Shown here: in pieces, positions 1-23,130 of the stretch
Layout of the letters: each line of letters opens with the position of its first letter
Position numbering within the stretch: position 1 is the first letter of the stretch
Assembly: GCA_963708135.1 (NCBI GenBank)
Contig: OY970192.1
Location: 3,264,001-3,328,000 of the forward strand
Direction of reading: 5' to 3'
Origin: an uncultured Gemmatimonadales bacterium
GTDB lineage: Bacteria; Gemmatimonadota; Gemmatimonadetes; Longimicrobiales; RSA9
DNA: 64,000 nt
The notes under the pieces: model-generated
What the model was told of the DNA's origin: nothing
Databases searched by the model: none
Seen by the model: only the letters and a program-made list of their open reading frames with translations
Translations under genes and position numbers: made by a program

Positions 1-2264
1 AAGTTCGCCCAGTTGAGGATCGGCAGGTCGATCCCGTGCACATACGAGTAGTTGAGCGTGACCAGGAAGCTCGAGATCGCCTGCCGGACGCCGATCGCCG
101 TCTGGATGGAATGCGGCGGCTTGAGGTCGTTCGGGATGAACCAGGCCTCCGGCTGCCCGCTGGTGTGAACCAGCTGGTCCAGCACGGCACGGTTCGCCGT
201 GAGATAGGACGGATTCCAGGCGACCTGGTTCCCCGTCGGCGTCGTGCCGGGCTGCGCGAAATTGACCGTGTAGACCGGGTGGCTGATCTTCTGCACCGGA
301 TCGACTCCGTACAGGTCGAACCCGATGCGGTCGTAGTAGATGCCCCAGCCGCCGAAGATCGTGGTGCGCTGGTTCCTGTCGAGAGCGTACGAAAAGCCGA
401 GCCGCGGCTGGACCGCGCCGTAGAAGGTCGCGTTCTTCCCGGTCCGGATGTAGCGGTTCAGGTCGAGCGGCGTGATGAGCTGGCTGTTGTAGGCGCGCAG
501 CGTGTCGGCGCTGGCCTGGGGCGTCGAGTAGTTCGAGTTCAGCATGTTGGTCTCGACATCCCAGCGCAGGCCCAGGTTCAGCGTCAGCCGGTCGACCGGC
601 GTCCAGTCATCCTGCGCGTAGACTCCGAACTCGGTGTTGTTGGCCTTGAGGAACGGGTTCCCTGTGCCGTACTCGAGCAGGTAGGGTGTCGCGTACCCGT
701 AGTCCGCGTTGAAGTGGAAGAGCGGAGTCCCGCTGTTGTCCTTGTTGATGTCATACTTCACGAAATCGACGCTCGCGCCCGTCTTGAAGACGTGCTGCCC
801 GCCCCAGTCCGCGACCGAGTAGGTGAGGTCGTTGCGCAACCCCACGGAGGACTGGATGAAGTCCTGCGTGCTGCGCGCGCTTCCGAGGATCGCGTTGCCT
901 GCGGGGAACTCGTACTGCAACTCCGGCTGCCCGGGCTCATTGGGGCTCGGATTCCGGCGCCACCGCGTGTAGTCGACCTTGGCCTCGTCCACCATCGAGC
1001 CGCGGAAGTACTTGTACGCGAGCTGACCGATGGAGACGTCCTGCCGGTAATTGTTCGCCGCGGTGAATGCCGTCGCGCCACCGAAGTCGCGGATATCGGT
1101 CTCGTGGCGGTTGTTGAAGCTGAGCTCGAACGTCGAGGAAGGGCCGGCCGAGTAATCGGCCTTGCCGAAGAACAGGTTCTCGCGGAACGGCGAGGTGAAG
1201 GAGCCCAGGTACTGGTTGAAGTCGATCGAGCCGAGCGCGGGATATCCCGTCGGGATCGTGGGGAAGGTCACCCGGTTCGCCCGGTTCTGGTAGTTGCCCT
1301 CGTAGGACACGAAGATGTGCGCCTTGTCCTTGATCAGCGGGCCGCCGATGCTGAGCGCGGTCAGCGTGCGGGAGTAGTCGGGCTTCTGGAAGGTCGAGGG
1401 GTTGGCCCGCTTGTCCGCCTGCTGGAAGGTGTCGAGCTGAATCAGGTTCTTGTTCTGGAAGCCGACGAGCACGTCACCGGACCAGGTGTTGCCGCCGGAC
1501 TTTGTGGTCGCGCTGATGATGGCGCTCGAGGACTTCTGGTACTCGGCCTTGAAGTTCTGCGTGATGACGCGGTACTCCTGAATCGCGTTGCGCGGGAACG
1601 GATTGCCCCGACTCGCGTCCTGCCCCGCCACGCCGCCGGCCGTCAGATCGTTCTTCAGGCTGGTCCCGTCGATGAAGACGTTCACGTTGTTGGGGCTCTG
1701 CCCGTTCGCGGAGAACGTACGGAACTGCTGGCTGTTGATGCGGTCCTCCGTGACGGTCACGCCCGGCGTGAGTTGCGCGAGGTCCAGGAAGTTGCGCGTG
1801 GGGCTGGGCAGCTGCTGGATCTGTTCGGGACTCACGTTGGTCGCGACCTCCGACGTGCGCGTCTCGATGGCGCGCTGCCCCGTGACCGTGATTCCCTGGA
1901 GCACGATGGCCTGCGTCGACAGCTGGAAGTCCGCCACCAGGCTCTGCCCGATCATTACCTGCAGCGTCCGGGACTCCGTCGCCTTGCCCAGCGCAGACAC
2001 CGTGATTCGGTACGTCCCGGGCCGCAGCCCCAACAGAGCGTAGGCCCCGTTCGCGCCGGCAATGGCCTGACGCTGATACCCGCTCGCGGTGTCCACCGCG
2101 ACGATCTCCGCGGAGGGCATGGGAGCGCCCGCCTCATCCCGCACGGTTCCACGAATCGTCGCGGTGCTGGTCTGCGCCGCGGCCGGGAGCGCCGCGAGCA
2201 GGCACAGCACCGCACCCGTCACCGGCGCCATCCACTGGCGTCGCATGATCCTCATCGTCCTCAT
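1..2264 (-). CDS. TonB-dependent receptor with N-terminal carboxypeptidase-regulatory-like domain (partial; runs off the window start)
   Basis: Absent from the ORF track because it has no stop in the window. Manual translation gives MRTMRIMRRQWMAPVTGAVLCLLAALPAAAQTSTATIRGTVRDEAGAP...GAYALLGLRPGTYRITV...QIQQLPSPTRNFLDLAQLTPGV, i.e. signal peptide, CarboxypepD_reg-like domain and plug. GGAGG RBS lies just upstream. Confidence 0.9.
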   Translation of the reverse strand, partial: MRTMRIMRRQWMAPVTGAVLCLLAALPAAAQTSTATIRGTVRDEAGAPMPSAEIVAVDTASGYQRQAIAGANGAYALLGLRPGTYRITVSALGKATESRTLQVMIGQSLVADFQLSTQAIVLQGITVTGQRAIETRTSEVATNVSPEQIQQLPSPTRNFLDLAQLTPGVTVTEDRINSQQFRTFSANGQSPNNVNVFIDGTSLKNDLTAGGVAGQDASRGNPFPRNAIQEYRVITQNFKAEYQKSSSAIISATTKSGGNTWSGDVLVGFQNKNLIQLDTFQQADKRANPSTFQKPDYSRTLTALSIGGPLIKDKAHIFVSYEGNYQNRANRVTFPTIPTGYPALGSIDFNQYLGSFTSPFRENLFFGKADYSAGPSSTFELSFNNRHETDIRDFGGATAFTAANNYRQDVSIGQLAYKYFRGSMVDEAKVDYTRWRRNPSPNEPGQPELQYEFPAGNAILGSARSTQDFIQSSVGLRNDLTYSVADWGGQHVFKTGASVDFVKYDINKDNSGTPLFHFNADYGYATPYLLEYGTGNPFLKANNTEFGVYAQDDWTPVDRLTLNLGLRWDVETNMLNSNYSTPQASADTLRAYNSQLITPLDLNRYIRTGKNATFYGAVQPRLGFSYALDRNQRTTIFGGWGIYYDRIGFDLYGVDPVQKISHPVYTVNFAQPGTTPTGNQVAWNPSYLTANRAVLDQLVHTSGQPEAWFIPNDLKPPHSIQTAIGVRQAISSFLVTLNYSYVHGIDLPILNWAN

Positions 2265-11909: not shown

Positions 11910-13832
11910 CTACCTCGCCGGCGGCCTGAACCCCAGCGTCTCCCCGGGGTCCAGCACTTCCTCGCCGACATCGCTGCGGATCCCCTCGACGCCGTCGAAG
12001 ACCTGCAGCGCGAAGGGGACCTTGCCGAAGGGGGCGCTGACCTGGAGGCCGCGCACGGCGGGGCGGACGCGCTCGAACATCTCGCGGGCGATGGCGATGC
12101 CCTCGGCCAGCGCGTGCTCCTTCCCCCTCTCGCTGGCGCGGCGCATCCGGACGAGCACGTCCTCGGGCACGACCACGCCGGGCACCTCGTTGGCGAGGAA
12201 CTCGGCGTTGCGGGCGGAGACGAGCGGCCAGATCCCGGCGACGATCGGGATCCAGATGCCGCGCTTCTCGAGCTCGGCGGTGAAGTCGAGGAGCTGGTCG
12301 GCGTCGAAGACGGGCTGGGTGACGGCGTACTCGGCGCCGGCCTCGACCTTCCAGTAGAAGCGCTCGAGCTCGTGCTCGCGGTCGGCGGCACCGGGATTCA
12401 CGCCGACGCCGATGGCGAAGGATGTCGGCTCGCCGATGGGGTTGCCGCCCGGGTCGAGCCCGTGGTTCAGCCGCACGACCAGGTTGGTGAGGCCGATGGA
12501 GTCGATGTCGAAGACGGCCGTGGACTCCGGGTACGGCCCCATCTTGGGCGGGTCGCCGGTGATGACGAGCAGGTTGCGCAGCCCGAGCGCGTGGGCGCCG
12601 AGCAGGTCGGAGAGCATGCCGAGCAGGTTCCTGTCCCGGCACGAGTAGTGGAGCACGGTCTCGATGCCGACGGTCTGCTCGATGAGCACGGCGGTGGCCA
12701 GCGCGCCCATCCGCATCTGGGCGCGCGGGCCATCCGGCACGTTGACGCCGTCGATGCCCGCGCGCTCGAGCAGCCGCACGCCCGCCAGCATCTTCGCTGG
12801 GCTGATCCCCTTGGGCGGCACGATCTCGACGGTGGTGACCAGCTCGCCGCCGGCGAGCTTCCGCCCCCAGCGCGAGCGGTCCGCCAGCGGCGTCACGGCC
12901 ACGTCGGGGGCGGCGGACTCGGGCCGGCCGACGTGCGTCGAGACGGTGCGCGGCGAAAGGGAGCGCACGGCGTCGCTTATCTGCCGGATGTGGTCGGGCG
13001 TGGTGCCGCAGCAGCCGCCCACGAACTTGACGCCGGCGCGGATGAGGCGCTGCGCGTACTTGGCCACGTACTCGGGCGAGGCCATGTACATCTTGCGGCC
13101 CGAGATCTCGCGCGGCATGCCCGCGTTCGGCTGCGCCGAGAGCTTCCTGCGCGTGACCGCGGCGGCCTTCTCGATCGCATCGAGGATCCCCGCGGGACCG
13201 ACGGAACAGTTGAAGCCGATGACGTCGGCGCCCCACTCGTCGAGCCGGACCGCGCAGACCTCGGGCGTCGTGCCGTACGTGGTCTTGCCGTCCTCCTGCA
13301 CCGTCATCTGCGCAACGACCGGAAACGTGCACGCCTCGCGCACGGCGAGCAGCGCCTCGTGGATCTCCGCGAGGTCGCTGAAGGTCTCGAGCACGAAGAA
13401 CTGCGCGCCACCCTCGAGGAGTCCTTCCGCCTGCTCCCTGAAGAACTCCCGCGCTTCCGCGAGCGATGTCGGCCCGTACGGCTCGATGCGGATCCCGAGC
13501 GGGCCGATCGAGCCGCCCACCAGCGCCCGCTCGCCCGCCGCCTCCCGCGCCACCCGCGCCGCCGCCGCGTTGATCTCGCGCACCTGCGCCTCGAGCCCGT
13601 ACTGCGCGAGCTTCACGCGGTTCGCGCCGAACGAGTTGGTCTCCAGCAGCTCCGCCCCCGCCCGCACGTACTCGCGGTGGACCTGCCGCACGAGATCGGG
13701 ATCGCGCAGGTTCAGCTCGTCATAGCAGCGGTTGATGAAGACCCCCTTCTGGTACAGCATCGTCCCCATCGCGCCGTCGAAGACGTGGGGCCGAGCGTCG
13801 GAGAGGAGGTCGAGGAAGCTGAGCTCAGGCAT
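11910..13832 (-). CDS. yitJ: Bifunctional homocysteine S-methyltransferase / 5,10-methylenetetrahydrofolate reductase
   Basis: FDGAMGT, GFNCSVGP and GGCCGTTP (HMT domain), then VEIVPPKG, HYSCRDRN, ITGDPP and TQPVFD (MTHFR domain). Confidence 0.92.
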   Translation of the reverse strand: MPELSFLDLLSDARPHVFDGAMGTMLYQKGVFINRCYDELNLRDPDLVRQVHREYVRAGAELLETNSFGANRVKLAQYGLEAQVREINAAAARVAREAAGERALVGGSIGPLGIRIEPYGPTSLAEAREFFREQAEGLLEGGAQFFVLETFSDLAEIHEALLAVREACTFPVVAQMTVQEDGKTTYGTTPEVCAVRLDEWGADVIGFNCSVGPAGILDAIEKAAAVTRRKLSAQPNAGMPREISGRKMYMASPEYVAKYAQRLIRAGVKFVGGCCGTTPDHIRQISDAVRSLSPRTVSTHVGRPESAAPDVAVTPLADRSRWGRKLAGGELVTTVEIVPPKGISPAKMLAGVRLLERAGIDGVNVPDGPRAQMRMGALATAVLIEQTVGIETVLHYSCRDRNLLGMLSDLLGAHALGLRNLLVITGDPPKMGPYPESTAVFDIDSIGLTNLVVRLNHGLDPGGNPIGEPTSFAIGVGVNPGAADREHELERFYWKVEAGAEYAVTQPVFDADQLLDFTAELEKRGIWIPIVAGIWPLVSARNAEFLANEVPGVVVPEDVLVRMRRASERGKEHALAEGIAIAREMFERVRPAVRGLQVSAPFGKVPFALQVFDGVEGIRSDVGEEVLDPGETLGFRPPAR

Positions 13833-13853
13833 CAGCCATCTCTCTCAGCAGTT

Positions 13854-13935
13854 CACGCTTTCGCATTCGCATTCGCATTCGCATTCGCATTCGCTTTCGG
13901 CGGTTCGGCGGTTCGGCGGTTCGGCGGTTCGGCGG
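13854..13935. repeat. Tandem hexamers CGC(A/T)TT x7 followed by octamers CGGCGGTT x~5
   Basis: Read directly from the sequence; forms the left arm of an inverted pair with 14463-14490. Confidence 0.9.
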
Positions 13936-13981
13936 CCCCACCCCAGCACGGACGCCGCGCCCGGATTCTGGCACACGCCGC

Positions 13982-14347
13982 TCATTCGCCTCTCCCTTTC
14001 CCTTTCCCCAGCAGTCCCGTGAGCATCGCCACGATCCGGTCCAGCAGCTCGCGCCCGGACCCGAGCTCGGTCTCGTCCGCGAGATGCAGCACTTCGAGGA
14101 CGTCGAGCACCGCCGCGCATTCCGTGGCCGAGCGACGCGCGAAGCGGAAGAACCGCGCCTTGTCCGCCTTGCTGAACTCGCCCGCGCCCTCGGCGATGTT
14201 CAGGGCCATGGACGTCGCGGCGCGCCGGAGCTGGTCGACCAGGTAGCCGTGCCCGGCCGGCAGCCGCTGCACGAGGGCGTTCGCCACGGCCACGAACTCG
14301 ATCGCGGCGCGGTAGACATCCATCTTCTCGTGAAAGAACGTGGGCAT
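13982..14347 (-). CDS. Four helix bundle protein (23S rRNA IVS protein / Avd-like family)
   Basis: HEKMDVYRAAIEF...LVDQLRRAATSMALNIAEGAG...RFFRFARRSATECAAVLD signature; GGAG upstream of the ATG. Confidence 0.92.
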   Translation of the reverse strand: MPTFFHEKMDVYRAAIEFVAVANALVQRLPAGHGYLVDQLRRAATSMALNIAEGAGEFSKADKARFFRFARRSATECAAVLDVLEVLHLADETELGSGRELLDRIVAMLTGLLGKGKGRGE

Positions 14348-14462
14348 GGTTGACTCCCGTGTCGAACATGGCAGCGTGCACCCTACCGCCTCCCGGGGGC
14401 GAGGGGGGCCTCGCCCCGCCTCACCTTCGCCCGCGGAGGGCACCCTCCCCCCGCCCCCGTTT

Positions 14463-14509: not shown

Positions 14510-17500
14510 TTACGCCGAGAAATATTTGGCCTCGGGATGATGCACCACCAGCGCCGCGGTGCTCAGCTCGGGAACGAGCGCGCCGGCCTCGGTGAGCTCC
14601 ATGTCCAGCCGCTCCCTCGCCGGCAGCAGCTCGAAGAGCGTGAAGTGCTGGCGGTGATCCGGGCACGCGGGATAGCCCCACGAGTAGCGCAGCCCGCGGT
14701 CCTCCGGGATCCCCAGCTCGCGGCGGATGCGGCGGTGCAGCCACTCGGCGGCGGCCTCGGCCAGGCGCACGCCGAAGCCGTGCAGGAAATAGCCCTCGCC
14801 GTAGTCGCCGCTCTTCATGAGGGCGGCGGAGCGCTCGAGCAGGCGGTCGCCGATGGTGACGACCTGGAAGGCGACGATGTCGGGGGCCCCGTTCGTGGCG
14901 GGCGCGAAGTAGTCGGCCAGGCAGAGACGGTCGCGGTCGGCCTGGCGTGGGAAGGGGAAGCGCGCGAGCTCGCGGCCGGCGTCGCCGGGAGCGTAGACGA
15001 CGAGATCGTCGCCTGCCGAGGCCGCGGGGAAGAAGCCGTAGGCGGCGCGCGGCGCGAGCAGGCCGGCGGCCTGGACCTCCCGGCGGTAGCGGCGCAGGCG
15101 CGGCTCGAACTCGTCGGTCACGAGCCGCTCCCACTCCTCGCCCTTGGCGTTCCTGGCGCCCCAGTGCAGGCGGTAGAGGGTGTTGAGCTCGATGTCCTCG
15201 TAGAGCTCCGCCAGCGGAGGGCGGTCGAGCACCTTGACGCCGAGGAACGGCGGCCTGGGGATGGCGACATCGCGCGAGGGGCCGCCGCCGTCCCGCGCCG
15301 GCCGGCCCGCCCGGGCGCGCGCCTGGAGCTCGGCGCGCCGGGCCACGCCCTCCCGGACATCCCGCTGCCGGTCGGCGATGAAGCCCTCGCGGCGGCCGGG
15401 ATCGAGCAGCGCGTCCACCGTGGCCAGCCCCTCGAACGCATCCTTGCAGTAGTAGACGCCGGGGGCGTAGAGGGCGCCGGCGTCGCCATCCACGAAGGAG
15501 GCGGCGCGCACGAAGGAGGGGTTGATGGCCGCGCCGCCGACCATGACGGGGAACGAGAGGCCGCGCGCGTGCAGCTCCTGGACGCACAGCGGCATCTGCT
15601 TCGACGTCGAGACGAGCAGCGCGGAGAGGCCGATCACGTCCGCGCCGACCTCCTGGGCGCGCTCGATGATGGTGTTGACCGGGACCTGCTTGCCGAGGTC
15701 GTGGACGGTATAGCCGTTGTTGGAGAGAATGGTGCCGACCAGGCTCTTGCCGATGTCGTGGACATCGCCGAAGACCGTGGCCAGGACGACCTTGCCCTTG
15801 GTCTCGCCTTCGACCTTCTCGAGGAAGGTCTCCAGCCGGGCGACGGCGCGCTTCATGACCTCCGCCGACTGCAGCACGAACGGCAGGATCAGCTCGCCCG
15901 CGCCGAACTTGTCGCCCACCTCCTTCATGGCGGGGAGGAGCACGTGGTTCAGGACGTGGACGGCCGCGCGGTGGGTGGGGCCGGGCCCGCCGGCCCCGCC
16001 GTTCACGCTTTCGCTTTCGCCTTCGCTTTCGCTTTCGATCCGTTCCGATTCCGGATCCAGAATTCGCCGCTGCTTCCCGATTGCCCTTTCCACCAGCTCC
16101 TCCACACCGTCCTTCTTCCGGTGCAGGATCTTCCAGTGGATGGCCTGCTCGGGCTCCATCTCCGCCGTGGGATCGACCGCCTCCTCGGCCTCGGCCTCGT
16201 GGGACTCGTAGAAGGCGATGAAGCGGGCGAGCGCATCCTCGCGGCGGTCGAAGATGAGGTCGTCGGCCAGCGCGCGCTGCTCGGCGTCGATCTCGGCGTA
16301 AGGGGTGATGTGCGCGGGGTTCACGATGGCCATGTCGAGCCCCGCCTCGACGCAGTGGTGCAGGAACACGGAGTTCAGCACCGCGCGCGCGTGGCGGGCC
16401 AGCCCGAAGCTGACGTTCGAGACGCCCAGCGAGGTGAGCACGCCCGGCAGCTCCCGCTTGATCAGCCGGATCCCCTCGATCGTGTCCACCGCGGAGTGGC
16501 GGAACTCGGCGTCGCCGGTGGCGAGCGTGAAGGTCAGCGCATCGAAGATGAGCGCGTCCGGGGCGAGGCCGTACTCCTGGGTCGAGATCTGGTGGATGCG
16601 GTGCGCCACCTCGAGCTTGCGCTCCGCCGTCTTGGCCATCCCCTCCTCGTCGATCGTCAATGCGACGACGGCGGCCCCGTGCTCCACCGCGTACGGCAGC
16701 ACCGCCTCGATGCGCTGCCGCCCGTTCTCCAGGTTGATCGAGTTCACGATCGCGCGGCCGGGGTACTGCTCGAGCGCGGCGCGCACGACGTCGTACTCGG
16801 TGGTGTCCACGACGAGCGGCGCCTCGACCCCCTGCGCGAGCAGCTTCACCAGCGCGCCCATCTGCGCTGCCTCGTCCTGCCGCTCGGTCACGGCCACGCA
16901 CACATCCAGCAGGTGCGCGCCGCCCTCGACCTGGCCGCGCGCGACCTCGAGGATGCCGTCGTAGTCCTCCGCCAGCAGCAGCCGCTTGACCGCGCGCGAG
17001 CCCTGCGCGTTCACCCGCTCGCCGATCAGCGTCGGCGCCGGCTGCTGCGCGAGCGCCGTGGCCGTCATGGCGCTGGCGACGCGGGCCACGTAGGCGACGT
17101 CGCGCGTGCGCGGCTTCTTCCCCCACACGCGTTCCACCACCTGCCGCAGGTGCTCCGGCGTGGTGCCGCAGCAGCCGCCGACCACGTTCACGCCGAGCTG
17201 CTCGACGAACTCGCCGTGCGCCTCCGCCAGCGCCTCCGGCGTGAGCGGATAGACGGCGCAGCCGGCCTCGTTGTGCGGGATGCCGGCGTTCGGGATCACG
17301 CTGATGGGTAGCCGCGTGTTGTCCGAGAGCCAGCGCACGGGCTGGCGCATGTGCTCGGGGCCGGTCGAGCAGTTGAGCCCGATCAGGTCGGCGCCGATCG
17401 CCTCGATGATGACCGTGGCCGCCTCGATGTCCGTGCCCAGCAGCATCCGGCCGGAGGTGTCCAGCGTGACCTGCACCTGCAGCGGCCGCCACGTGCCCAG

Positions 17501-18061
17501 CTCCGCGAGCGCCCGCCGGATCCCCGTCACCTGCGCCTTGACCTCGAGGATGTCCTGGCTGGTCTCGATCAGCAGCACGTCCACGCCGCCCTCGACGAGC
17601 CCCCGCGCCTGCTCGCGGAACACCTCCGCCAGCTCGCCGTACGTGGTGGCGCCGAGCGTCGGATCGGAGGTGCTCGGCAGGAACCCGCTCGGCCCGATGC
17701 TGCCCGCAACGAAGCGCGGCCGCTCCGGCGTGGCGAAGCCATCCGCCACCCGCCGGGCCAGGGAGGCGGCGGCGCGGTTCATCTCGACGATGCGGTCCTC
17801 GAGCCCGTACTCGCGCATGGTGAGGCGGTTGGCGCGGAAGGTGTCGGTCTCGACCACGTCGCAGCCGACCTCCAGGAACGAGGCGTGGATGCCCTCGACC
17901 ACCTCCGGCCTGGAGAAGACCAGGTGGTCGTTGCACCCCTCCAGGCCCGGACCACCGAAGTCGGCGGCCGCGAGCCCCAGCGCCTGGATGCTCGTCCCCA
18001 TGGCGCCGTCGAACACCAGCACGCGCTCCTTCAGCACATCGAGATACCGGCTCTCGCGCAT
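14510..18061 (-). CDS. metH: Cobalamin-dependent methionine synthase
   Basis: FDGAMGT, LNCSTGP, GGCCGT; pterin domain IGERVNAQGS; B12 motif GDVHDIGK..SALL; reactivation domain RYSWGYPACP. Confidence 0.96.
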   Translation of the reverse strand: MRESRYLDVLKERVLVFDGAMGTSIQALGLAAADFGGPGLEGCNDHLVFSRPEVVEGIHASFLEVGCDVVETDTFRANRLTMREYGLEDRIVEMNRAAASLARRVADGFATPERPRFVAGSIGPSGFLPSTSDPTLGATTYGELAEVFREQARGLVEGGVDVLLIETSQDILEVKAQVTGIRRALAELGTWRPLQVQVTLDTSGRMLLGTDIEAATVIIEAIGADLIGLNCSTGPEHMRQPVRWLSDNTRLPISVIPNAGIPHNEAGCAVYPLTPEALAEAHGEFVEQLGVNVVGGCCGTTPEHLRQVVERVWGKKPRTRDVAYVARVASAMTATALAQQPAPTLIGERVNAQGSRAVKRLLLAEDYDGILEVARGQVEGGAHLLDVCVAVTERQDEAAQMGALVKLLAQGVEAPLVVDTTEYDVVRAALEQYPGRAIVNSINLENGRQRIEAVLPYAVEHGAAVVALTIDEEGMAKTAERKLEVAHRIHQISTQEYGLAPDALIFDALTFTLATGDAEFRHSAVDTIEGIRLIKRELPGVLTSLGVSNVSFGLARHARAVLNSVFLHHCVEAGLDMAIVNPAHITPYAEIDAEQRALADDLIFDRREDALARFIAFYESHEAEAEEAVDPTAEMEPEQAIHWKILHRKKDGVEELVERAIGKQRRILDPESERIESESEGESESVNGGAGGPGPTHRAAVHVLNHVLLPAMKEVGDKFGAGELILPFVLQSAEVMKRAVARLETFLEKVEGETKGKVVLATVFGDVHDIGKSLVGTILSNNGYTVHDLGKQVPVNTIIERAQEVGADVIGLSALLVSTSKQMPLCVQELHARGLSFPVMVGGAAINPSFVRAASFVDGDAGALYAPGVYYCKDAFEGLATVDALLDPGRREGFIADRQRDVREGVARRAELQARARAGRPARDGGGPSRDVAIPRPPFLGVKVLDRPPLAELYEDIELNTLYRLHWGARNAKGEEWERLVTDEFEPRLRRYRREVQAAGLLAPRAAYGFFPAASAGDDLVVYAPGDAGRELARFPFPRQADRDRLCLADYFAPATNGAPDIVAFQVVTIGDRLLERSAALMKSGDYGEGYFLHGFGVRLAEAAAEWLHRRIRRELGIPEDRGLRYSWGYPACPDHRQHFTLFELLPARERLDMELTEAGALVPELSTAALVVHHPEAKYFSA
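16001..16041. repeat. Intragenic hexamer repeat (CGCTTT-type) in frame within metH
   Basis: GTTCACGCTTTCGCTTTCGCCTTCGCTTTCGCTTTCGATCC encodes ESESEGESESVN; its first 14 nt are identical to 13851-13864. Confidence 0.85.
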
Positions 18062-18116
18062 CCCCGCCTGCTCCCTGGAAGACTGCCCGCACCCGCGGCC
18101 GGCGCCCCCGGCCAGC

Positions 18117-18150
18117 AAAAAACCCCCGGCCACTCTGAAAGTGCGGGGGT
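18117..18150 (-). terminator. Intrinsic terminator/attenuator in the metH leader
   Basis: RNA ACCCCCG-CACU-UUCAG-AGUG-GC-CGGGGG-UUUUUU, about 55 nt upstream of the metH ATG. Confidence 0.85.
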
Positions 18151-18164
18151 CGCCCTGGGGCGGA

Positions 18165-18297
18165 TCCTTCATCCCGGCACTTTAGCTTTTGTGCGACGAC
18201 GCCGCGAGCGTGCCGGGCTGGGTGCGCCCTCCCTCGCGGTCGTCGTCCGGCGGTAGCAAGCGGCCTGCAAATCCCTCCGCCGGTTCAACCCTTCATC
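18165..18297 (-). ncRNA. Candidate riboswitch aptamer of unrecognised class in the metH 5' leader
   Basis: Two GC-rich stems, an 8-bp loop-to-tail pseudoknot and an AAAAGCUAAA linker, located between a promoter and a terminator, with a competing antiterminator pairing. Confidence 0.7.
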
Positions 18298-18303
18298 GTC
18301 ACG

Positions 18304-18332
18304 AATGTAGGGGTGCCCCCCACGCGGGTCAA
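18304..18332 (-). promoter_or_regulatory. Sigma70 promoter of the metH operon
   Basis: TTGACC (18332-18327) - 17 nt - TACATT (18309-18304). Confidence 0.75.
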
Positions 18333-18469
18333 CCCACTGCCACGCCGGCATTTCTCGGGAGTCGGCATTGCAGGCGACGGGATAACAAGCGAGCAGTGAT
18401 CCGTCAGGTTCTGACGGCTCGTCGGTCAGACATCATCGACGGAAACGTGAACGGCAAAACGGCCACGGC

Positions 18470-19392
18470 TCGACACGAAGGGCCCGGAGGGAGCGGAGGG
18501 AACGGACCCCCCCGCGGCACCACCCTGTCCGGCAGCGGGCGCATCGGGATGCCACGCCCACACGGCGACGGACGAGGTCGGGACGCGGGACCTGCTGCGG
18601 TCGGGGCAGGGCAGCGGGGTCGCGGTGGCGCGCGGCGGGTCGCGGGGTGCACAGCCTGCCACTCGCCAACCTCCGGCGCGTGAGGGGCGGCTCGTGCACC
18701 CCAGGCCGGCCCAACTCGCCGCCCGCTTTCTCCGGCTTCATCGAGTGGCGGATCGGGACGGTTCTGCCTGCCCGATCCGACTCTCGTTTCCGCAGCCAGG
18801 ACGAGTGGCGGGTTGTGCAGGGATGAGGTCCCCCGCCCCGGTGCGGCCGATGGCCCGCGGCGCCCGGAGGGGTGCGCGGGCCGCCGAGCCGGAAGGTGAG
18901 CCGCACGGCGTCGGCCTGGATCGTGGAGGAAGAAGGTGGGCAGCCCGAACACACGCATACGCACCCGCGGTGCGACGCCTCAAGAGCCTCTGACGCCTCG
19001 GAGTCCTCCGGCACACCCGAGCCCTCTGACGCCTCGGAGTCCTCCGGCACGCCCGAGCCCTCTGACGCCTCGGAGTCCTCCGGCACGCCCGAGCCCTCTG
19101 GCTCCGCCGAGCCCTCGGACTTCCCCGCGCCCTCCGACGCCCGAGCCCTCCGACGCCCGAGCCCTCCGACGCCCGAGCCCTCCGACGCCCGAGTCCTCTG
19201 ACGCCTCGGAGCCTTCGACGCCCCCCGAGCCCCGGTCCCCAACCCCGAGCCCGCTACCGAGCCCGCGCCCCGCGTCCCCGAGCCCGCGCCCCCGAGCCCG
19301 CGCCCCGGGCGCGAGCCAGATCCCGATCCCGATCCCGATCCCGATCCCGATCCCGATCCCGATCCCGAGCCCCGATCCCGAGCCCCGAGCCC
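18470..19392. repeat. Composite intergenic repeat region
   Basis: 9-mer arm at 18470-18506; CCACTCG/CGAGTGG-type copies at 18645-18819; 36-bp unit x3 from 18987; 16-bp unit GAGCCCTCCGACGCCC x3 from 19143; (GATCCC)x8 at 19319-19366. Confidence 0.85.
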
Positions 19393-19438
19393 CGCGGCCC
19401 GGCTCCCGCGCCCATGGTAGCGGAGCGCCTCCGCTCTC

Positions 19439-21700
19439 TCACACCCCGAGGGGCACGCGGCAGGGGAGGCGCACGGTGAACGTGGAGCCGGCGCCGGGCT
19501 CGCTCACGACCGAGATGCTTCCCCCGAGCAGCCGGGCGAGGCGGGCGGCCACGCTGAGGCCGAGGCCAGTGCCCTCCTGGTGGCGGGTGCCGGGGTCCTC
19601 CACCTGCCAGAAGGGCTCGAAGATGCGGGCGAGGTGATTGCGGCGGATCCCGATTCCGGTGTCGCGGACCTCGAAGACGATGTCGTCGCCGGCATGGGAG
19701 GCCTCGAGGGAGACGGTGCCCTCGCGCGTGAACTTCACGGCGTTGTAGAGGAGGTTGAGCAGGATCTGGCGGACCTTGCCGGGATCGGTGCGGATCAGGC
19801 CGTCGCTCTGGGGGCCGTGGACGACGAAGCGCAGGCGCTTCTCCTCGGCGATCGGGCGCATGAGGCTGTCGATCTCGTCGAGGAGCACGCCCAGGTCGAC
19901 GTCCTCGGGAGCGATCTGCTCGCGGCCGGCCTCAGTGCGGGCGAAGGCGAGCACCTCGTCGATGAGGTGCAGCAGGTGGCGCGCGCTGAGGAGGATGCGC
20001 CGCAGCTGGCCCTGCTGCTTCTCGGTCACGGGGCCGGAGATGCCGGCGGTCAGGATGTCGGCATACCCCATGATGGCGGTGAGCGGCGTGCGCAGCTCGT
20101 GGCTCATGACGGCGAGGAAGTTGGCCTTGGCGCGGTCGGCCACGACGGCCTCCTCGTAGAGGCGGGCGTTGTCCACGGCCAGGGCGGCCCGGCCGGCCAG
20201 CGACTCGAGGCGCGTCCTCTCGACGGGGCCGTAGCGGCGCTCCGGATCGGTGCTGCCCGCGGTGATGGCGCCGAGCACGCGCTCGCGCGCGACGAGCGGG
20301 ATGATGGCGAGCGAGCGGAGCCCGATGTCGCGGAGCGCGGCGAGGTGGGCGTCGTCCTGCGCGAGGTCCTGGAGCACGGCGGCGTCCACCTCCGCCTGGA
20401 CCTCGGCCTTTCCGGTCGCGAGCACGCGGGCGATGGCGCCCCGGCCGCCGTGCTCGGGCACCCAGCGGCGGCGCAACTCGCGGTCGAGCGGCGCGCGCGC
20501 CGGGTCGGCGCTCGTCGCCTCCACGCGGCGCACCTCTCCCGTCTCCTCCAGGGCGTCGACCACGCACCAGTCGGCGAGGCGGGGAACGGCGAGCTCGGCC
20601 AGGGTTCGGAGCGTGCGGTCCACGTCGAGCGAGCCGGCCAGTCGGCGGCCGGCCTCCGCCAGGAAGCGGGACCAGTCCGCAGCATCCAGCGCATCGACAC
20701 GCGCGACGTGCGCCGCCTTGCGCTGCCGCTCGAGCTCGTCGACGGTGGCCTCGAGCTCCGCCGCGGCCTGCTCCAGCCGCTCCTGCTGCCGCATCCGTTC
20801 GCTCGCATCGCGGATGATGCCGGTGAACACCGGGACCCCGTCCTGCACGAAGCTGCCGAAGGAGATCTCGAGGGGGACGTGCGTACCGTCGCGGCGGAGT
20901 CCCGGCAGCTCGACACCGTCCCAGGGGATGTTGCGGCGGCCGGTCTCGATGTAGCGCCGGAACCCGCGCAGGTGGCGCTCGCGCATCTCGGGCGGCATGA
21001 GCATCGTGAGCGGCTGCCCGACCAGCTCTTCCGGGGGGTAGCCGAAGACCCGCCGCACGGCTGGGTTCACGGACAGGATGGTGCTCGAGGCGTCGATGGT
21101 GATGATGACATCCGTCGAGGTCTCGGCCAGCAGCCGGTAGCGCCGCTCGCTCGCGGCGAGCTCGTCCGCGGCGCGGCGGCGCTGGGTGAAGAGGCCGATC
21201 TGCGCCCCCACGGCGGCCATGGTCTCGAGCAGCTCAGGATCGGACTGGCGCGGCGCCTCGGTGTAGCACTCGAGCGCGCCCAGGAACTCGCCGCCGAGAG
21301 CGACCGGGAACGCGAAGCCGCTCGACAGTCCGGCGCGAGCCGCCGCGGCCGCGCGCGGGTAGTTCGGGTCGGCGGACAGGTCGGGGATCCAGGCGGGCTC
21401 TCCGGCGGCCCAGACGCGGCCGGGCAGGCCGACCCCGCGCTCGAAGGTGGACTCGCGCGTGAGGGCCTCGAACGCATCGAGCCGCGCCGCGTCCCCTCGC
21501 CGCCAGATGGAGCGCGCCACCAGCCGCGCCGGGGCTTCCTCGAGCGCCCAGTAGACGCCGACGGCCCAGCCGAGGCTCTCGGTGACCGCCTCGACCACGC
21601 CGTCCAGCATGGCCTGCACGCTTTCGGCCTCGATCAGCACCTGCGCGGCGGCGTTGTGCGCCGCCAGCCGTCGGATCGTTTCCTCTCGCTCCGAGCCCAT
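19439..21700 (-). CDS. Cytoplasmic sensor histidine kinase (GAF-PAS-GAF-HisKA-HATPase)
   Basis: GLPGRVW GAF domain; PAS domain (NPAVRRVFGY); [30 protein letters not shown]. The ORF-track upstream extension overlaps pepP and is rejected. Confidence 0.92.
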   Translation of the reverse strand: MGSEREETIRRLAAHNAAAQVLIEAESVQAMLDGVVEAVTESLGWAVGVYWALEEAPARLVARSIWRRGDAARLDAFEALTRESTFERGVGLPGRVWAAGEPAWIPDLSADPNYPRAAAAARAGLSSGFAFPVALGGEFLGALECYTEAPRQSDPELLETMAAVGAQIGLFTQRRRAADELAASERRYRLLAETSTDVIITIDASSTILSVNPAVRRVFGYPPEELVGQPLTMLMPPEMRERHLRGFRRYIETGRRNIPWDGVELPGLRRDGTHVPLEISFGSFVQDGVPVFTGIIRDASERMRQQERLEQAAAELEATVDELERQRKAAHVARVDALDAADWSRFLAEAGRRLAGSLDVDRTLRTLAELAVPRLADWCVVDALEETGEVRRVEATSADPARAPLDRELRRRWVPEHGGRGAIARVLATGKAEVQAEVDAAVLQDLAQDDAHLAALRDIGLRSLAIIPLVARERVLGAITAGSTDPERRYGPVERTRLESLAGRAALAVDNARLYEEAVVADRAKANFLAVMSHELRTPLTAIMGYADILTAGISGPVTEKQQGQLRRILLSARHLLHLIDEVLAFARTEAGREQIAPEDVDLGVLLDEIDSLMRPIAEEKRLRFVVHGPQSDGLIRTDPGKVRQILLNLLYNAVKFTREGTVSLEASHAGDDIVFEVRDTGIGIRRNHLARIFEPFWQVEDPGTRHQEGTGLGLSVAARLARLLGGSISVVSEPGAGSTFTVRLPCRVPLGV

Positions 21701-21801
21701 GCGAACCGTTACCCGGGATCCCCGCGCGCGGCTGAGCGGCGCGGGCTGAAAAGACGCGCAAGTCGTGTCAAGAACGCAAGGTACGTACCCGGGAGCCGGC
21801 G

Positions 21802-23130
21802 TCAGTCGGCGCCGCCGATCATGGCTTCGAGCGACTCGGGGTCCGCGGGCAGCGCGGCGCTGAGGAGCTCCGCGCCGGTGAGCGTCACGGCCAGGTCGTC
21901 CTCGATGCGGATGCCGGTGCCGCGCAGGTGCGCGGGCGCGGCCTCGGCGTCGGCGGGGATGTAGAGGCCGGGCTCGATGGTGAGGACCATCCCCGGGCGC
22001 AGCGGGACGGGCGCGCCGTCGCGGCTGTAGCCGCCCACGTCGTGGACCTCGAGGCCGAGCCAGTGGGACGTGCGGTGCGGGTACCACGCGCGGAGCGCCT
22101 GCGCCTCCTCGATCGCCTGGTCCACGGTGCCCTCGAGCAGGCCGGCGTCGATCATGCCGCCGACCAGCACCTCGAGCGCGGCGTGGTGCGCCTCCTCGAG
22201 GGTGGCGCCCGGGCGAATGGTGGCGATCGCGGCATCGCGGGCGGCGAGCACGGTCTCGTAGAGAGCGCGCTGGTCGGGGGTGAAGCCGCCGGAGACGGGG
22301 AAGGTGCGCGAGAGGTCGGCCGCGTAGAGGCCGTAGGCGGCGCCGCCGTCCACCAGCAGGAGCTCGCCCGCCTGCATGGCGCGGTCGTTGTCCACGTAGT
22401 GCAGATAGGCCGCGTTCTCGCCGGAGGCGACGATGGTCTGGAACGCGAAGCCGTCGGCGCCGCGGCCGCGGAACGCGGCCTCGAGGGCGGCCTCGACCTC
22501 GTATTCGCCGGCGCCCGGCCGGATCACGGCGGCGGCCTCGCGGAAGGAGGCGGCGCTGATGCGGGCGGCCTCGCGGATGAGCTCGAGCTCGTGGGCATCC
22601 TTGACCAGCCGCATCTCGTCGAGCACGGCGCCGGGATCGACGAGCGCCTCGGGGCCGGTGCCGGTGCGCTGGCGCGAGAGGCGGGCGCGCCTGAGCACGT
22701 CGCGCAGGATGTCGTCCACGTCGGGGCGGCCGCTCTCGAGGCGCGCGTAGAGGGTGTCCGCGCCCGCGACGAGCGAGCGCAGCCGGGCGTCCAGCTCGAC
22801 CACGGACCAGGTGGCATCGGCGCCGAAGCGCTCGGCCGCGCCCTCCACCCCGAGCCGGCGTCCGCTCCACCGCTCGCGCTCCGCGTCGCGCGGCCGCACG
22901 AACAGCGTGAACGGCTGCTCCGCCTCGGGCGCGAGCACGAGCACGGCCTCGGGCTCCGTGCACCCGGTCAGGTAGTACAGCTCGGGGGCGGGGCGGTAGC
23001 GCAGCTCGAGGTCGCGGCCCACGCGCAGCTCGGGCGCCGCGGCGATCACCATCGCGGCGCGCGGCCCCACGGCCTCCAGCGCGCGGGCGCGCCGCTCGGC
23101 GTGCGCGGACGGCGGGACGGCCCGGCTCAC
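21802..23130 (-). CDS. pepP: Xaa-Pro aminopeptidase (M24B)
   Basis: YYLTGCTEPEA, LHYVDN, VDGGA..YAADLSRTFP, HWLGLEVHD, TIEPGLY, GIRIEDD; GTG start overlaps the upstream TGA. Confidence 0.92.
   Translation of the reverse strand: MSRAVPPSAHAERRARALEAVGPRAAMVIAAAPELRVGRDLELRYRPAPELYYLTGCTEPEAVLVLAPEAEQPFTLFVRPRDAERERWSGRRLGVEGAAERFGADATWSVVELDARLRSLVAGADTLYARLESGRPDVDDILRDVLRRARLSRQRTGTGPEALVDPGAVLDEMRLVKDAHELELIREAARISAASFREAAAVIRPGAGEYEVEAALEAAFRGRGADGFAFQTIVASGENAAYLHYVDNDRAMQAGELLLVDGGAAYGLYAADLSRTFPVSGGFTPDQRALYETVLAARDAAIATIRPGATLEEAHHAALEVLVGGMIDAGLLEGTVDQAIEEAQALRAWYPHRTSHWLGLEVHDVGGYSRDGAPVPLRPGMVLTIEPGLYIPADAEAAPAHLRGTGIRIEDDLAVTLTGAELLSAALPADPESLEAMIGGAD

Follow-up and report, generated by a model that had tools for sequence, protein, structure and literature searches.

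What kind of element controls metH, the gene for cobalamin-dependent methionine synthase, at this gemmatimonadotal locus? In the 64,000-nucleotide stretch of DNA that was analysed (the window), metH lies on the minus strand, presumably co-transcribed with a yitJ-like gene, and its leader had been described in a first-pass annotation as a candidate new riboswitch class, based on a pseudoknot between the loop of a hairpin (stem B) and a downstream tail. A riboswitch-type leader of metH proved right in outline. The comparative analysis argues strongly that the element is a SAM-II riboswitch, i.e. an H-type pseudoknot of the RF00521/RF01726 kind, with a lineage-specific hairpin in loop L3 and a terminator as expression platform, and that it very probably controls metH, and probably the yitJ-like gene as well, by transcription termination. 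We further infer that the ligand is SAM, which was among the candidates of the first-pass annotation, which triplex contacts are made, and in which direction and with what kinetics the leader switches.

The leader reads from the minus strand, and its features are collected in Table 1. A single promoter-like site was found between positions 17900 and 18600, where 0.0 were expected from shuffled sequences, and a TTGAC..TAnnnT pair is similarly spaced 5' of P1 in relatives, as judged by eye rather than counted. The promoter, stem A (which corresponds to P1), stem B, the second copy of GAUGAAGG and the U6 tract are all present as had been described, and stems A and B are both part of the minimum-free-energy fold of the leader. 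The overall stability of this fold is unremarkable (z = -1.58; 13 of 200 shuffles fold as well). Many genera have conserved the stems, the tail and the terminator, with compensatory changes. In contrast, other features listed in the first-pass annotation did not stand out from the background: the 8-nt complementarity of the tail to the stem B loop is at chance level, and neither copy of GAUGAAGG nor the 5' GAUGAAGGGUUGAA is kept in relatives, as judged from the loci ahead of MetH-like ORFs. With regard to the neighbourhood, a large gene for a GAF/PAS histidine kinase (19439-22963, minus) is situated upstream of the metH promoter region, and a 178-codon ORF, a possible gene with no Pfam match (13845-14381, minus), lies between metH and the yitJ-like gene.

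Table 1. Predicted features of the metH leader and the genes it precedes (positions in the window).
Feature	Positions	Strand	Basis
Sigma-70-like promoter: TTGACC 18332-18327, 17-nt spacer, TACATT 18309-18304	18304..18332	-	promoter scan
Putative SAM-II-type aptamer, whole, including the inserted hairpin	18173..18283	-	match of model R1, 18286-18171
P1 5' arm (= stem A), CCGGCGG	18277..18283	-	minimum-free-energy fold, covariation
L1, AGGGAUUUG; its AUUU is the presumed SAM-II triplex strand	18268..18276	-	AUUU invariant in 110/110
P2 5' strand within the P1 loop, GGC-CG-CUU-GCU	18255..18265	-	covariation
P1 3' arm, CCGCCGG	18247..18253	-	minimum-free-energy fold, covariation
Stem B, 51-nt hairpin at the 5' end of L3	18196..18246	-	covariation; arms 18246-18233 / 18208-18196
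A-rich remainder of L3, CGCACAAA	18188..18195	-	alignment A1, opposite the A-run of the canonical leaders
P2 3' strand and switching tail, AGCUAAAGUGCCGGG	18173..18187	-	CUAAA invariant in 110/110
Predicted intrinsic terminator hairpin; its 5' arm CCCCCGCACU(UU) is also the candidate antiterminator partner	18123..18149	-	folding
U6 tract	18117..18122	-	sequence
metH, cobalamin-dependent methionine synthase, start ATG 18061	14510..18061	-	S-methyl_trans, Pterin_bind, B12-binding_2, B12-binding and Met_synt_B12 domains
yitJ-like gene, homocysteine S-methyltransferase and MTHFR domains	11910..13832	-	domains; downstream of metH

The absence of an Rfam hit had been named as a sign of novelty, and at gathering scores there is indeed none: the window leader is below every Rfam gathering threshold, including those of RF00521 (36 bits) and RF01726 (44 bits). 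An Rfam scan of positions 16000-20000 yielded no riboswitch family at E <= 10. When 18120-18300 was scanned alone, with laxer filters, the best riboswitch match was a local one to RF01726 (SAM-II long loop), which covers model positions 6-38 of 60, spans stem A and its loop, and scores 15.1 bits (E = 1.5) against the cut-off of 44. RF00521 gave no match at E <= 10 on 18120-18300, and the metH leader is not among its three genome-wide matches. Similarly, neither window scan returned a SAM-I, SAM-IV or SAM-I/IV match (RF00162, RF00634, RF01725) at E <= 10; no Rfam match thus supports the resemblances to SAM-I that had been pointed out before, and a SAM-I-like reading was dropped.

The picture is different for leaders that lack stem B. 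In a search of 41 genomes, the RF01726 cut-off was exceeded in three (45.6 to 46.3 bits), all of them metH leaders of the sister family (L031, L032 and L033; one of the three genomes, G038, is flagged as unpublished), five further genomes reached 32 to 37 bits, and the window's genome remained without a match. Rfam was also run on six loci from a pattern scan of species-representative genomes, three of which (L064, L045 and L063) belong to a set of 64 hairpin-less leaders. L064 scores 40.3 bits on RF00521, above its cut-off of 36, and L063 and L045 score 43.6 and 40.6 bits, respectively, on RF01726 (cut-off 44). Hairpin-bearing relatives reach only 16.6 to 24 bits over the full RF01726 model; L109 has only 24.0 bits, and L082 returned nothing at E <= 1. 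The Rfam shortfall of the window leader hence tracks the insert, as hairpin-less homologues pass or nearly pass, and the missing hit is to be read as a failure of sensitivity caused by the hairpin insertion and not as evidence of novelty.

A covariance model, R1, was built from an alignment (A2) of the 64 hairpin-less leaders only. R1 matches the window leader over its full length (model positions 1-63) with 37.4 bits and E = 4.6e-9, the next-best match in the window having E = 7.1. In the whole genome, two matches were obtained at E <= 1, namely the metH leader (32.1 bits, E = 1.3e-5) and a second leader ahead of metK. The score for the metH leader rests mainly on the sequence blocks, because Infernal put a 56-nt insert into the loop of P1 and matched the 3' arm of P1 with that of stem B. 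Together, the hairpin-less relatives and the R1 match indicate that the window leader is homologous to SAM-II (RF00521/RF01726).

The relatives also show which parts of the leader are kept. A DNA search of 61 related genomes recovered two conserved blocks. The first comprises stem A together with its loop, at 85 to 97% identity; the second, the CAAAAGCUAAAGUGCCGGG block, reaches up to 100%. The element is located ahead of a MetH-like ORF in 23 of the 29 other loci that were fetched, and in those loci stem A, its loop, the tail and the CCCCGCAC... terminator are kept, while the length and sequence of stem B vary freely. In metH leaders of the sister family, which have no stem B, an A-run joins P1 directly to the (U/C)GCUAAAG tail. 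The pattern scan, in which ATTTG, CYGCTTGS and CTAAAGNGYCGGR were fixed and alignment column 131 was limited to Y, yielded 111 loci, three of which (L058, L111 and L126) are evident chance hits lacking P1. The loci are mostly from Gemmatimonadota (Gemmatimonadales and Longimicrobiales), with several from Thermoanaerobaculia/Acidobacteriota and two from Neisseriaceae. A MAFFT alignment, A1, comprises 110 distinct aptamers, 46 with the hairpin and 64 without; its rows L018, L020, L023 and L031 come from genomes flagged as unpublished, and no claim is based on those rows alone. AUUU, GCUUG and CUAAA are invariant in 110/110 sequences of A1, which is partly by construction because most of these sequences were gathered by the fixed pattern. 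A MetH N-terminal motif follows in 42 of the 46 hairpin variants and in 38 of the 64 short forms, numbers that have to be read in the light of the short flanks of many loci.

The structure that was scored on A1 had been written from the SAM-II topology. Paired cells amount to 91.9%. The shuffles give 81.0%, none of the 500 being as high as the real alignment, and sliding the 3' partners lowers the value to 30 to 48%; as the A1 sequences are related to one another, the shuffle controls overstate the significance. Compensatory changes occur in all six P1 pairs tested (n = 110) and in all five pairs at the base of stem B (45 to 47 hairpin-bearing sequences with letters at these positions). Within the proposed pseudoknot, the 3' strand reads AGC-U-AAAG-U-GCC (18187-18176), in which GCC (18178-18176) would pair with the GGC of the P1 loop and AGC (18187-18185) with its GCU. 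Pair 28-131 (G/A at 18264 with C/U at 18177) is GC in 73 sequences, AU in 35, GU in two and unpaired in none (n = 110). Pair 37-118 (18255 with 18187) is paired in 84/110 sequences (UA 28, GC 27, CG 15, AU 9, GU 5) and unpaired in 26, and pair 26-133 is unpaired in 31/110. Columns 28, 37/118, P1 and stem B were free in the search pattern, and 131 was limited to Y. The CUU/AAG core and the adjacent G-C never vary and are hence uninformative on pairing; for the same reason, the two possible middle registers of P2 (CUU paired to AAG or, following the description of the crystal, UU paired to the first AA) are not distinguished by the alignment. The conservation and compensatory changes that had been asked of metH leaders were found, and covariation in A1 supports an H-type topology in which the P1 loop pairs with a downstream 3' strand. 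These data indicate that the true pseudoknot partner of the AAAGCUAAAGUGCC tail is the loop of stem A (GGC..CUUGCU), forming the SAM-II P2 helix.

This assignment bears directly on the pseudoknot proposed originally, in which CCCGGCAC in the stem B loop (18217-18210) pairs with GUGCCGGG (18180-18173). The exact complementarity of the two is real, yet it does not exceed chance. The longest complement between loop and tail is 8 nt in one of the 46 hairpin variants, 6 nt in two and at most 5 nt in the remaining 43, and shuffled inserts give about 4 nt. Since about 1% of mononucleotide-shuffled versions of the window insert contain an 8-nt complement, one such case in 46 is unremarkable. The pairing of the stem B loop with the tail is confined to this genome and was rejected for its lack of conservation among the hairpin variants; the tail covaries with the stem A loop instead. 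A new riboswitch class, built around the stem B pseudoknot and unrelated in fold and ligand to the known SAM classes, could draw on the existence of the 8-nt complement and on the lack of an Rfam family at gathering score. However, apart from the one variant the complement is at the level of shuffles, where about 1% per sequence attain it, stem B is missing from 64 homologous leaders that keep tail and terminator, several hairpin-less relatives reach Rfam cut-offs, and R1, a model of hairpin-less SAM-II leaders, finds the element at E = 4.6e-9, with the tail covarying with the P1 loop. We therefore regard a new class as extremely improbable.

Stem B is a hairpin specific to this lineage; it forms an insert at the 5' end of L3 and has no counterpart in canonical SAM-II. 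Canonical L3 is short, single-stranded and A-rich; in the window, the A-rich 3' part CGCACAAA is retained and the 51-nt hairpin is placed ahead of it. A whole family of Gemmatimonadota has retained stem B, with pairs that covary, and in the window genome the loop contains an exact 8-nt copy of the tail's pairing target. It might be speculated, although we consider it improbable, that the stem B loop acts as a decoy, so that the tail could choose among three partners (P1 loop, terminator arm and stem B loop), resulting in a three-state switch in which basal termination is tuned independently of SAM.

R1 was searched at E <= 0.001 in 151 genomes of the order, and the spans of the matches were tallied by hand; the counts include the genomes G016, G019, G038, G106 and G150, which are flagged as unpublished. 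A match was present in 44 of 50 other genomes of the window's family, in 47/50 of the sister family and in 2/50 of a third family. Insert-bearing matches (79 to 117 nt) occur in 42 of the 50 other family genomes and in the window's own, and in none of the matching genomes of the sister (0/47) or the third family (0/2), where all matches span 52 to 67 nt. The window genome itself harbours both forms: beyond the window, at locus L152 (G000, contig C1, minus strand, 3453231-3453308), a SAM-II-like aptamer of 65 nt, canonical and hairpin-less, is followed by a terminator and then by metK, the gene for SAM synthetase. As this metK leader scores 31.7 bits on RF00521 (E = 5.6e-5), below the cut-off of 36, it would also go unannotated.

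Downstream of the aptamer, the predicted terminator hairpin has a free energy of -18.2 kcal/mol when folded alone; a simple terminator scan returned 0 terminators owing to a 2-nt bulge in this hairpin. For the nascent RNA before synthesis of the 3' arm (18192-18135), the computed fold has -19.5 kcal/mol and pairs the tail, AAAGUGC.CGG, with the 5' arm. In 99/110 leaders the aptamer is followed, at a distance of 4 to 57 nt (median 23), by one hairpin (dG <= -10 kcal/mol) and a U-rich tract, and among the 11 leaders without a terminator by this criterion three have less than 120 nt of downstream DNA. The duplex of the tail with the 5' arm of its own terminator has a mean energy of -12.2 kcal/mol, compared to -6.65 kcal/mol for shuffled tails, and in 98 of 99 leaders the duplex is more stable than the mean of that leader's own shuffles. 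Tails of the AGC, AGT and CGT types pair best with arms of their own type, and for the TGC type the arms of three types are about equally good partners. Because both P2 and the antiterminator need the tail at 18183-18176, they are mutually exclusive. The competition between pseudoknot and antiterminator for the AAAGUGCCGGG tail, and the pairing of this tail with the terminator arm, had thus been recognized correctly at the outset, albeit with the wrong pseudoknot partner. The same holds in outline for an OFF switch acting by termination, which agrees with the terminators of 99/110 leaders and would be SAM-dependent.

From the order of these parts, a mechanism may be proposed. The P1 loop would supply the U-rich L1 strand (AUUU) as well as the P2 5' strand (GGC..CUU-GCU). 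With SAM bound, P2 and the triplex would hold the tail, the terminator hairpin and U6 would form, and transcription would stop before metH. Without SAM, the free tail would pair with the 5' arm of the terminator (AAAGUGC with GCACUUU and GGG with CCC) and allow read-through; since this arm is transcribed before the 3' arm, the tail would be able to capture it first. According to the excerpt of PMC3303485, SAM-II is a classic H-type pseudoknot with the L1 uridines in the major groove of P2b (structure 2QWY), and the adenine of SAM is sandwiched between a U and a G on the 5' strand; its pairing partner is an otherwise unpaired U of the 3' strand, which precedes an A-A. By consensus position, the SAM-site residues given in that excerpt would map onto AUUU, CUUG and CUAAA, and SAM would be expected to shield AUUU (18271-18269 region), CUUGCU and AGCUAAAGUGCC. 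A precedent for the coupling to termination may be found in the SAM-II riboswitch of Sinorhizobium meliloti metZ, for which transcription termination upon SAM binding is predicted in the excerpt of PMC9373788.

Alternatively, the choice between terminator and antiterminator might be made without a ligand, by translation of a leader ORF or by a protein. A 3-codon ORF, AUG AAG GGU UGA (18295-18284), does precede P1, and a further ATG at 18172 is in frame with metH, but neither AUG is conserved in relatives and the parts that are conserved and covary are the pseudoknot strands, so that we give such an attenuator almost no credence and retain the SAM-II reading. The reading frame from ATG 18172 contains no stop until ATG 18061 (18172-18062, minus strand). 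A metH start at ATG 18172, which would extend the protein by 37 codons, was considered and rejected: the codon lies in the conserved tail region, is itself not conserved in most relatives, and would place the terminator inside the ORF. Automatic gene callers could nevertheless lengthen metH by this stretch, which runs through the terminator.

Other riboswitch classes include variants whose ligand has changed, and by analogy the hairpin could have reshaped the binding pocket of a SAM-II-derived aptamer towards, e.g., SAH or another metabolite of the methionine cycle. The target genes might be taken to point the same way, as metH and metK lie outside the proteobacterial SAM-II targets listed in the excerpt of PMC4239095 (metY, hom, metA, metX, metC and metW). 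Against a changed specificity, the pocket blocks AUUU, CUUG and CUAAA are the same in hairpin-bearing and canonical forms of A1, the insert sits at the far end of L3 beside P1 and away from the P2 triplex, and the metK leader of the window genome is canonical. A shift in ligand is therefore very unlikely in our view, and SAM itself remains the presumed ligand of the metH leader.

Two further groups of loci came up among the relatives. The two Neisseriaceae loci (L052 and L128) have P1, the AUUUG, GCUUGCG and AGCUAAAGCGUCGG blocks and a terminator, with an RF00521 score of only 21.8 bits; these leaders may be the terminator-antiterminator element of beta-proteobacterial metXZ that the excerpt of PMC4239095 mentions. 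A third, short SAM-II-like type of 59 to 62 nt (RF01726, 28.7 bits) was encountered in two other genomes of the window's family, at L039 (about 1501-1702, plus strand) and L040 (about 1336-1560, minus strand), and was not found in the window's genome. In L039 the aptamer is followed by a 31-codon ORF with 10 Met codons, including a run of six, and then by a gene for homoserine dehydrogenase; in L040 it is followed by a 37-codon ORF with 6 Met codons and then by panB, encoding ketopantoate hydroxymethyltransferase. In this type, a riboswitch and a leader peptide with Met codons may be joined.

Taken together, the analysis removes a false lead to a new riboswitch class and suggests that current Rfam cut-offs miss a family-level group of SAM-II riboswitches in metH leaders of Gemmatimonadota, which annotation pipelines would leave blank. 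SAM-II control of metH and metK via intrinsic terminators outside Proteobacteria and Bacteroidetes would somewhat widen the regulon. In addition, L3 appears to tolerate a large insertion at the site where the hairpin occurs naturally, which may help engineering. Within one limited literature collection, we found no paper linking a SAM-II riboswitch to Gemmatimonadetes.

Among the known systems, SAM-I (S-box) would share with the metH leader the presumed ligand and the class of gene, and has GA-rich and GCUAAA-like fragments in common with it, but is built on a four-way junction, in contrast to the two-helix pseudoknot proposed here. The metZ riboswitch of S. meliloti has in common the termination coupling predicted in the excerpt of PMC9373788, while gene and phylum differ. 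The closest counterpart in architecture is SAM-II proper (RF00521, 'SAM_alpha'), which has the same order of blocks, i.e. P1, GAUUUG, a loop strand of the GGCCGGCUUGCA type, an A-rich L3 and a GCUAAAG..GCCGG tail, the same H-type pseudoknot topology, and a position ahead of a methionine/SAM gene. The metH leader differs from it by the 51-nt hairpin at the start of L3, its score below the cut-off, the gemmatimonadotal host, and target genes, metH and metK, outside the proteobacterial list in the excerpt of PMC4239095. The best Rfam match to the window leader is the SAM-II long loops motif (RF01726), described from Bacteroidetes and marine metagenomes (Weinberg et al. 2010, PMC2864571). In one sequence of its seed alignment (supplement of PMC2864571), about 40 additional nt separate the P1 3' arm from the A-run, at the same position of L3. 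What is different in the window's family is that a single conserved and covarying hairpin at this position is the rule, being present in 42 of the 50 other genomes.
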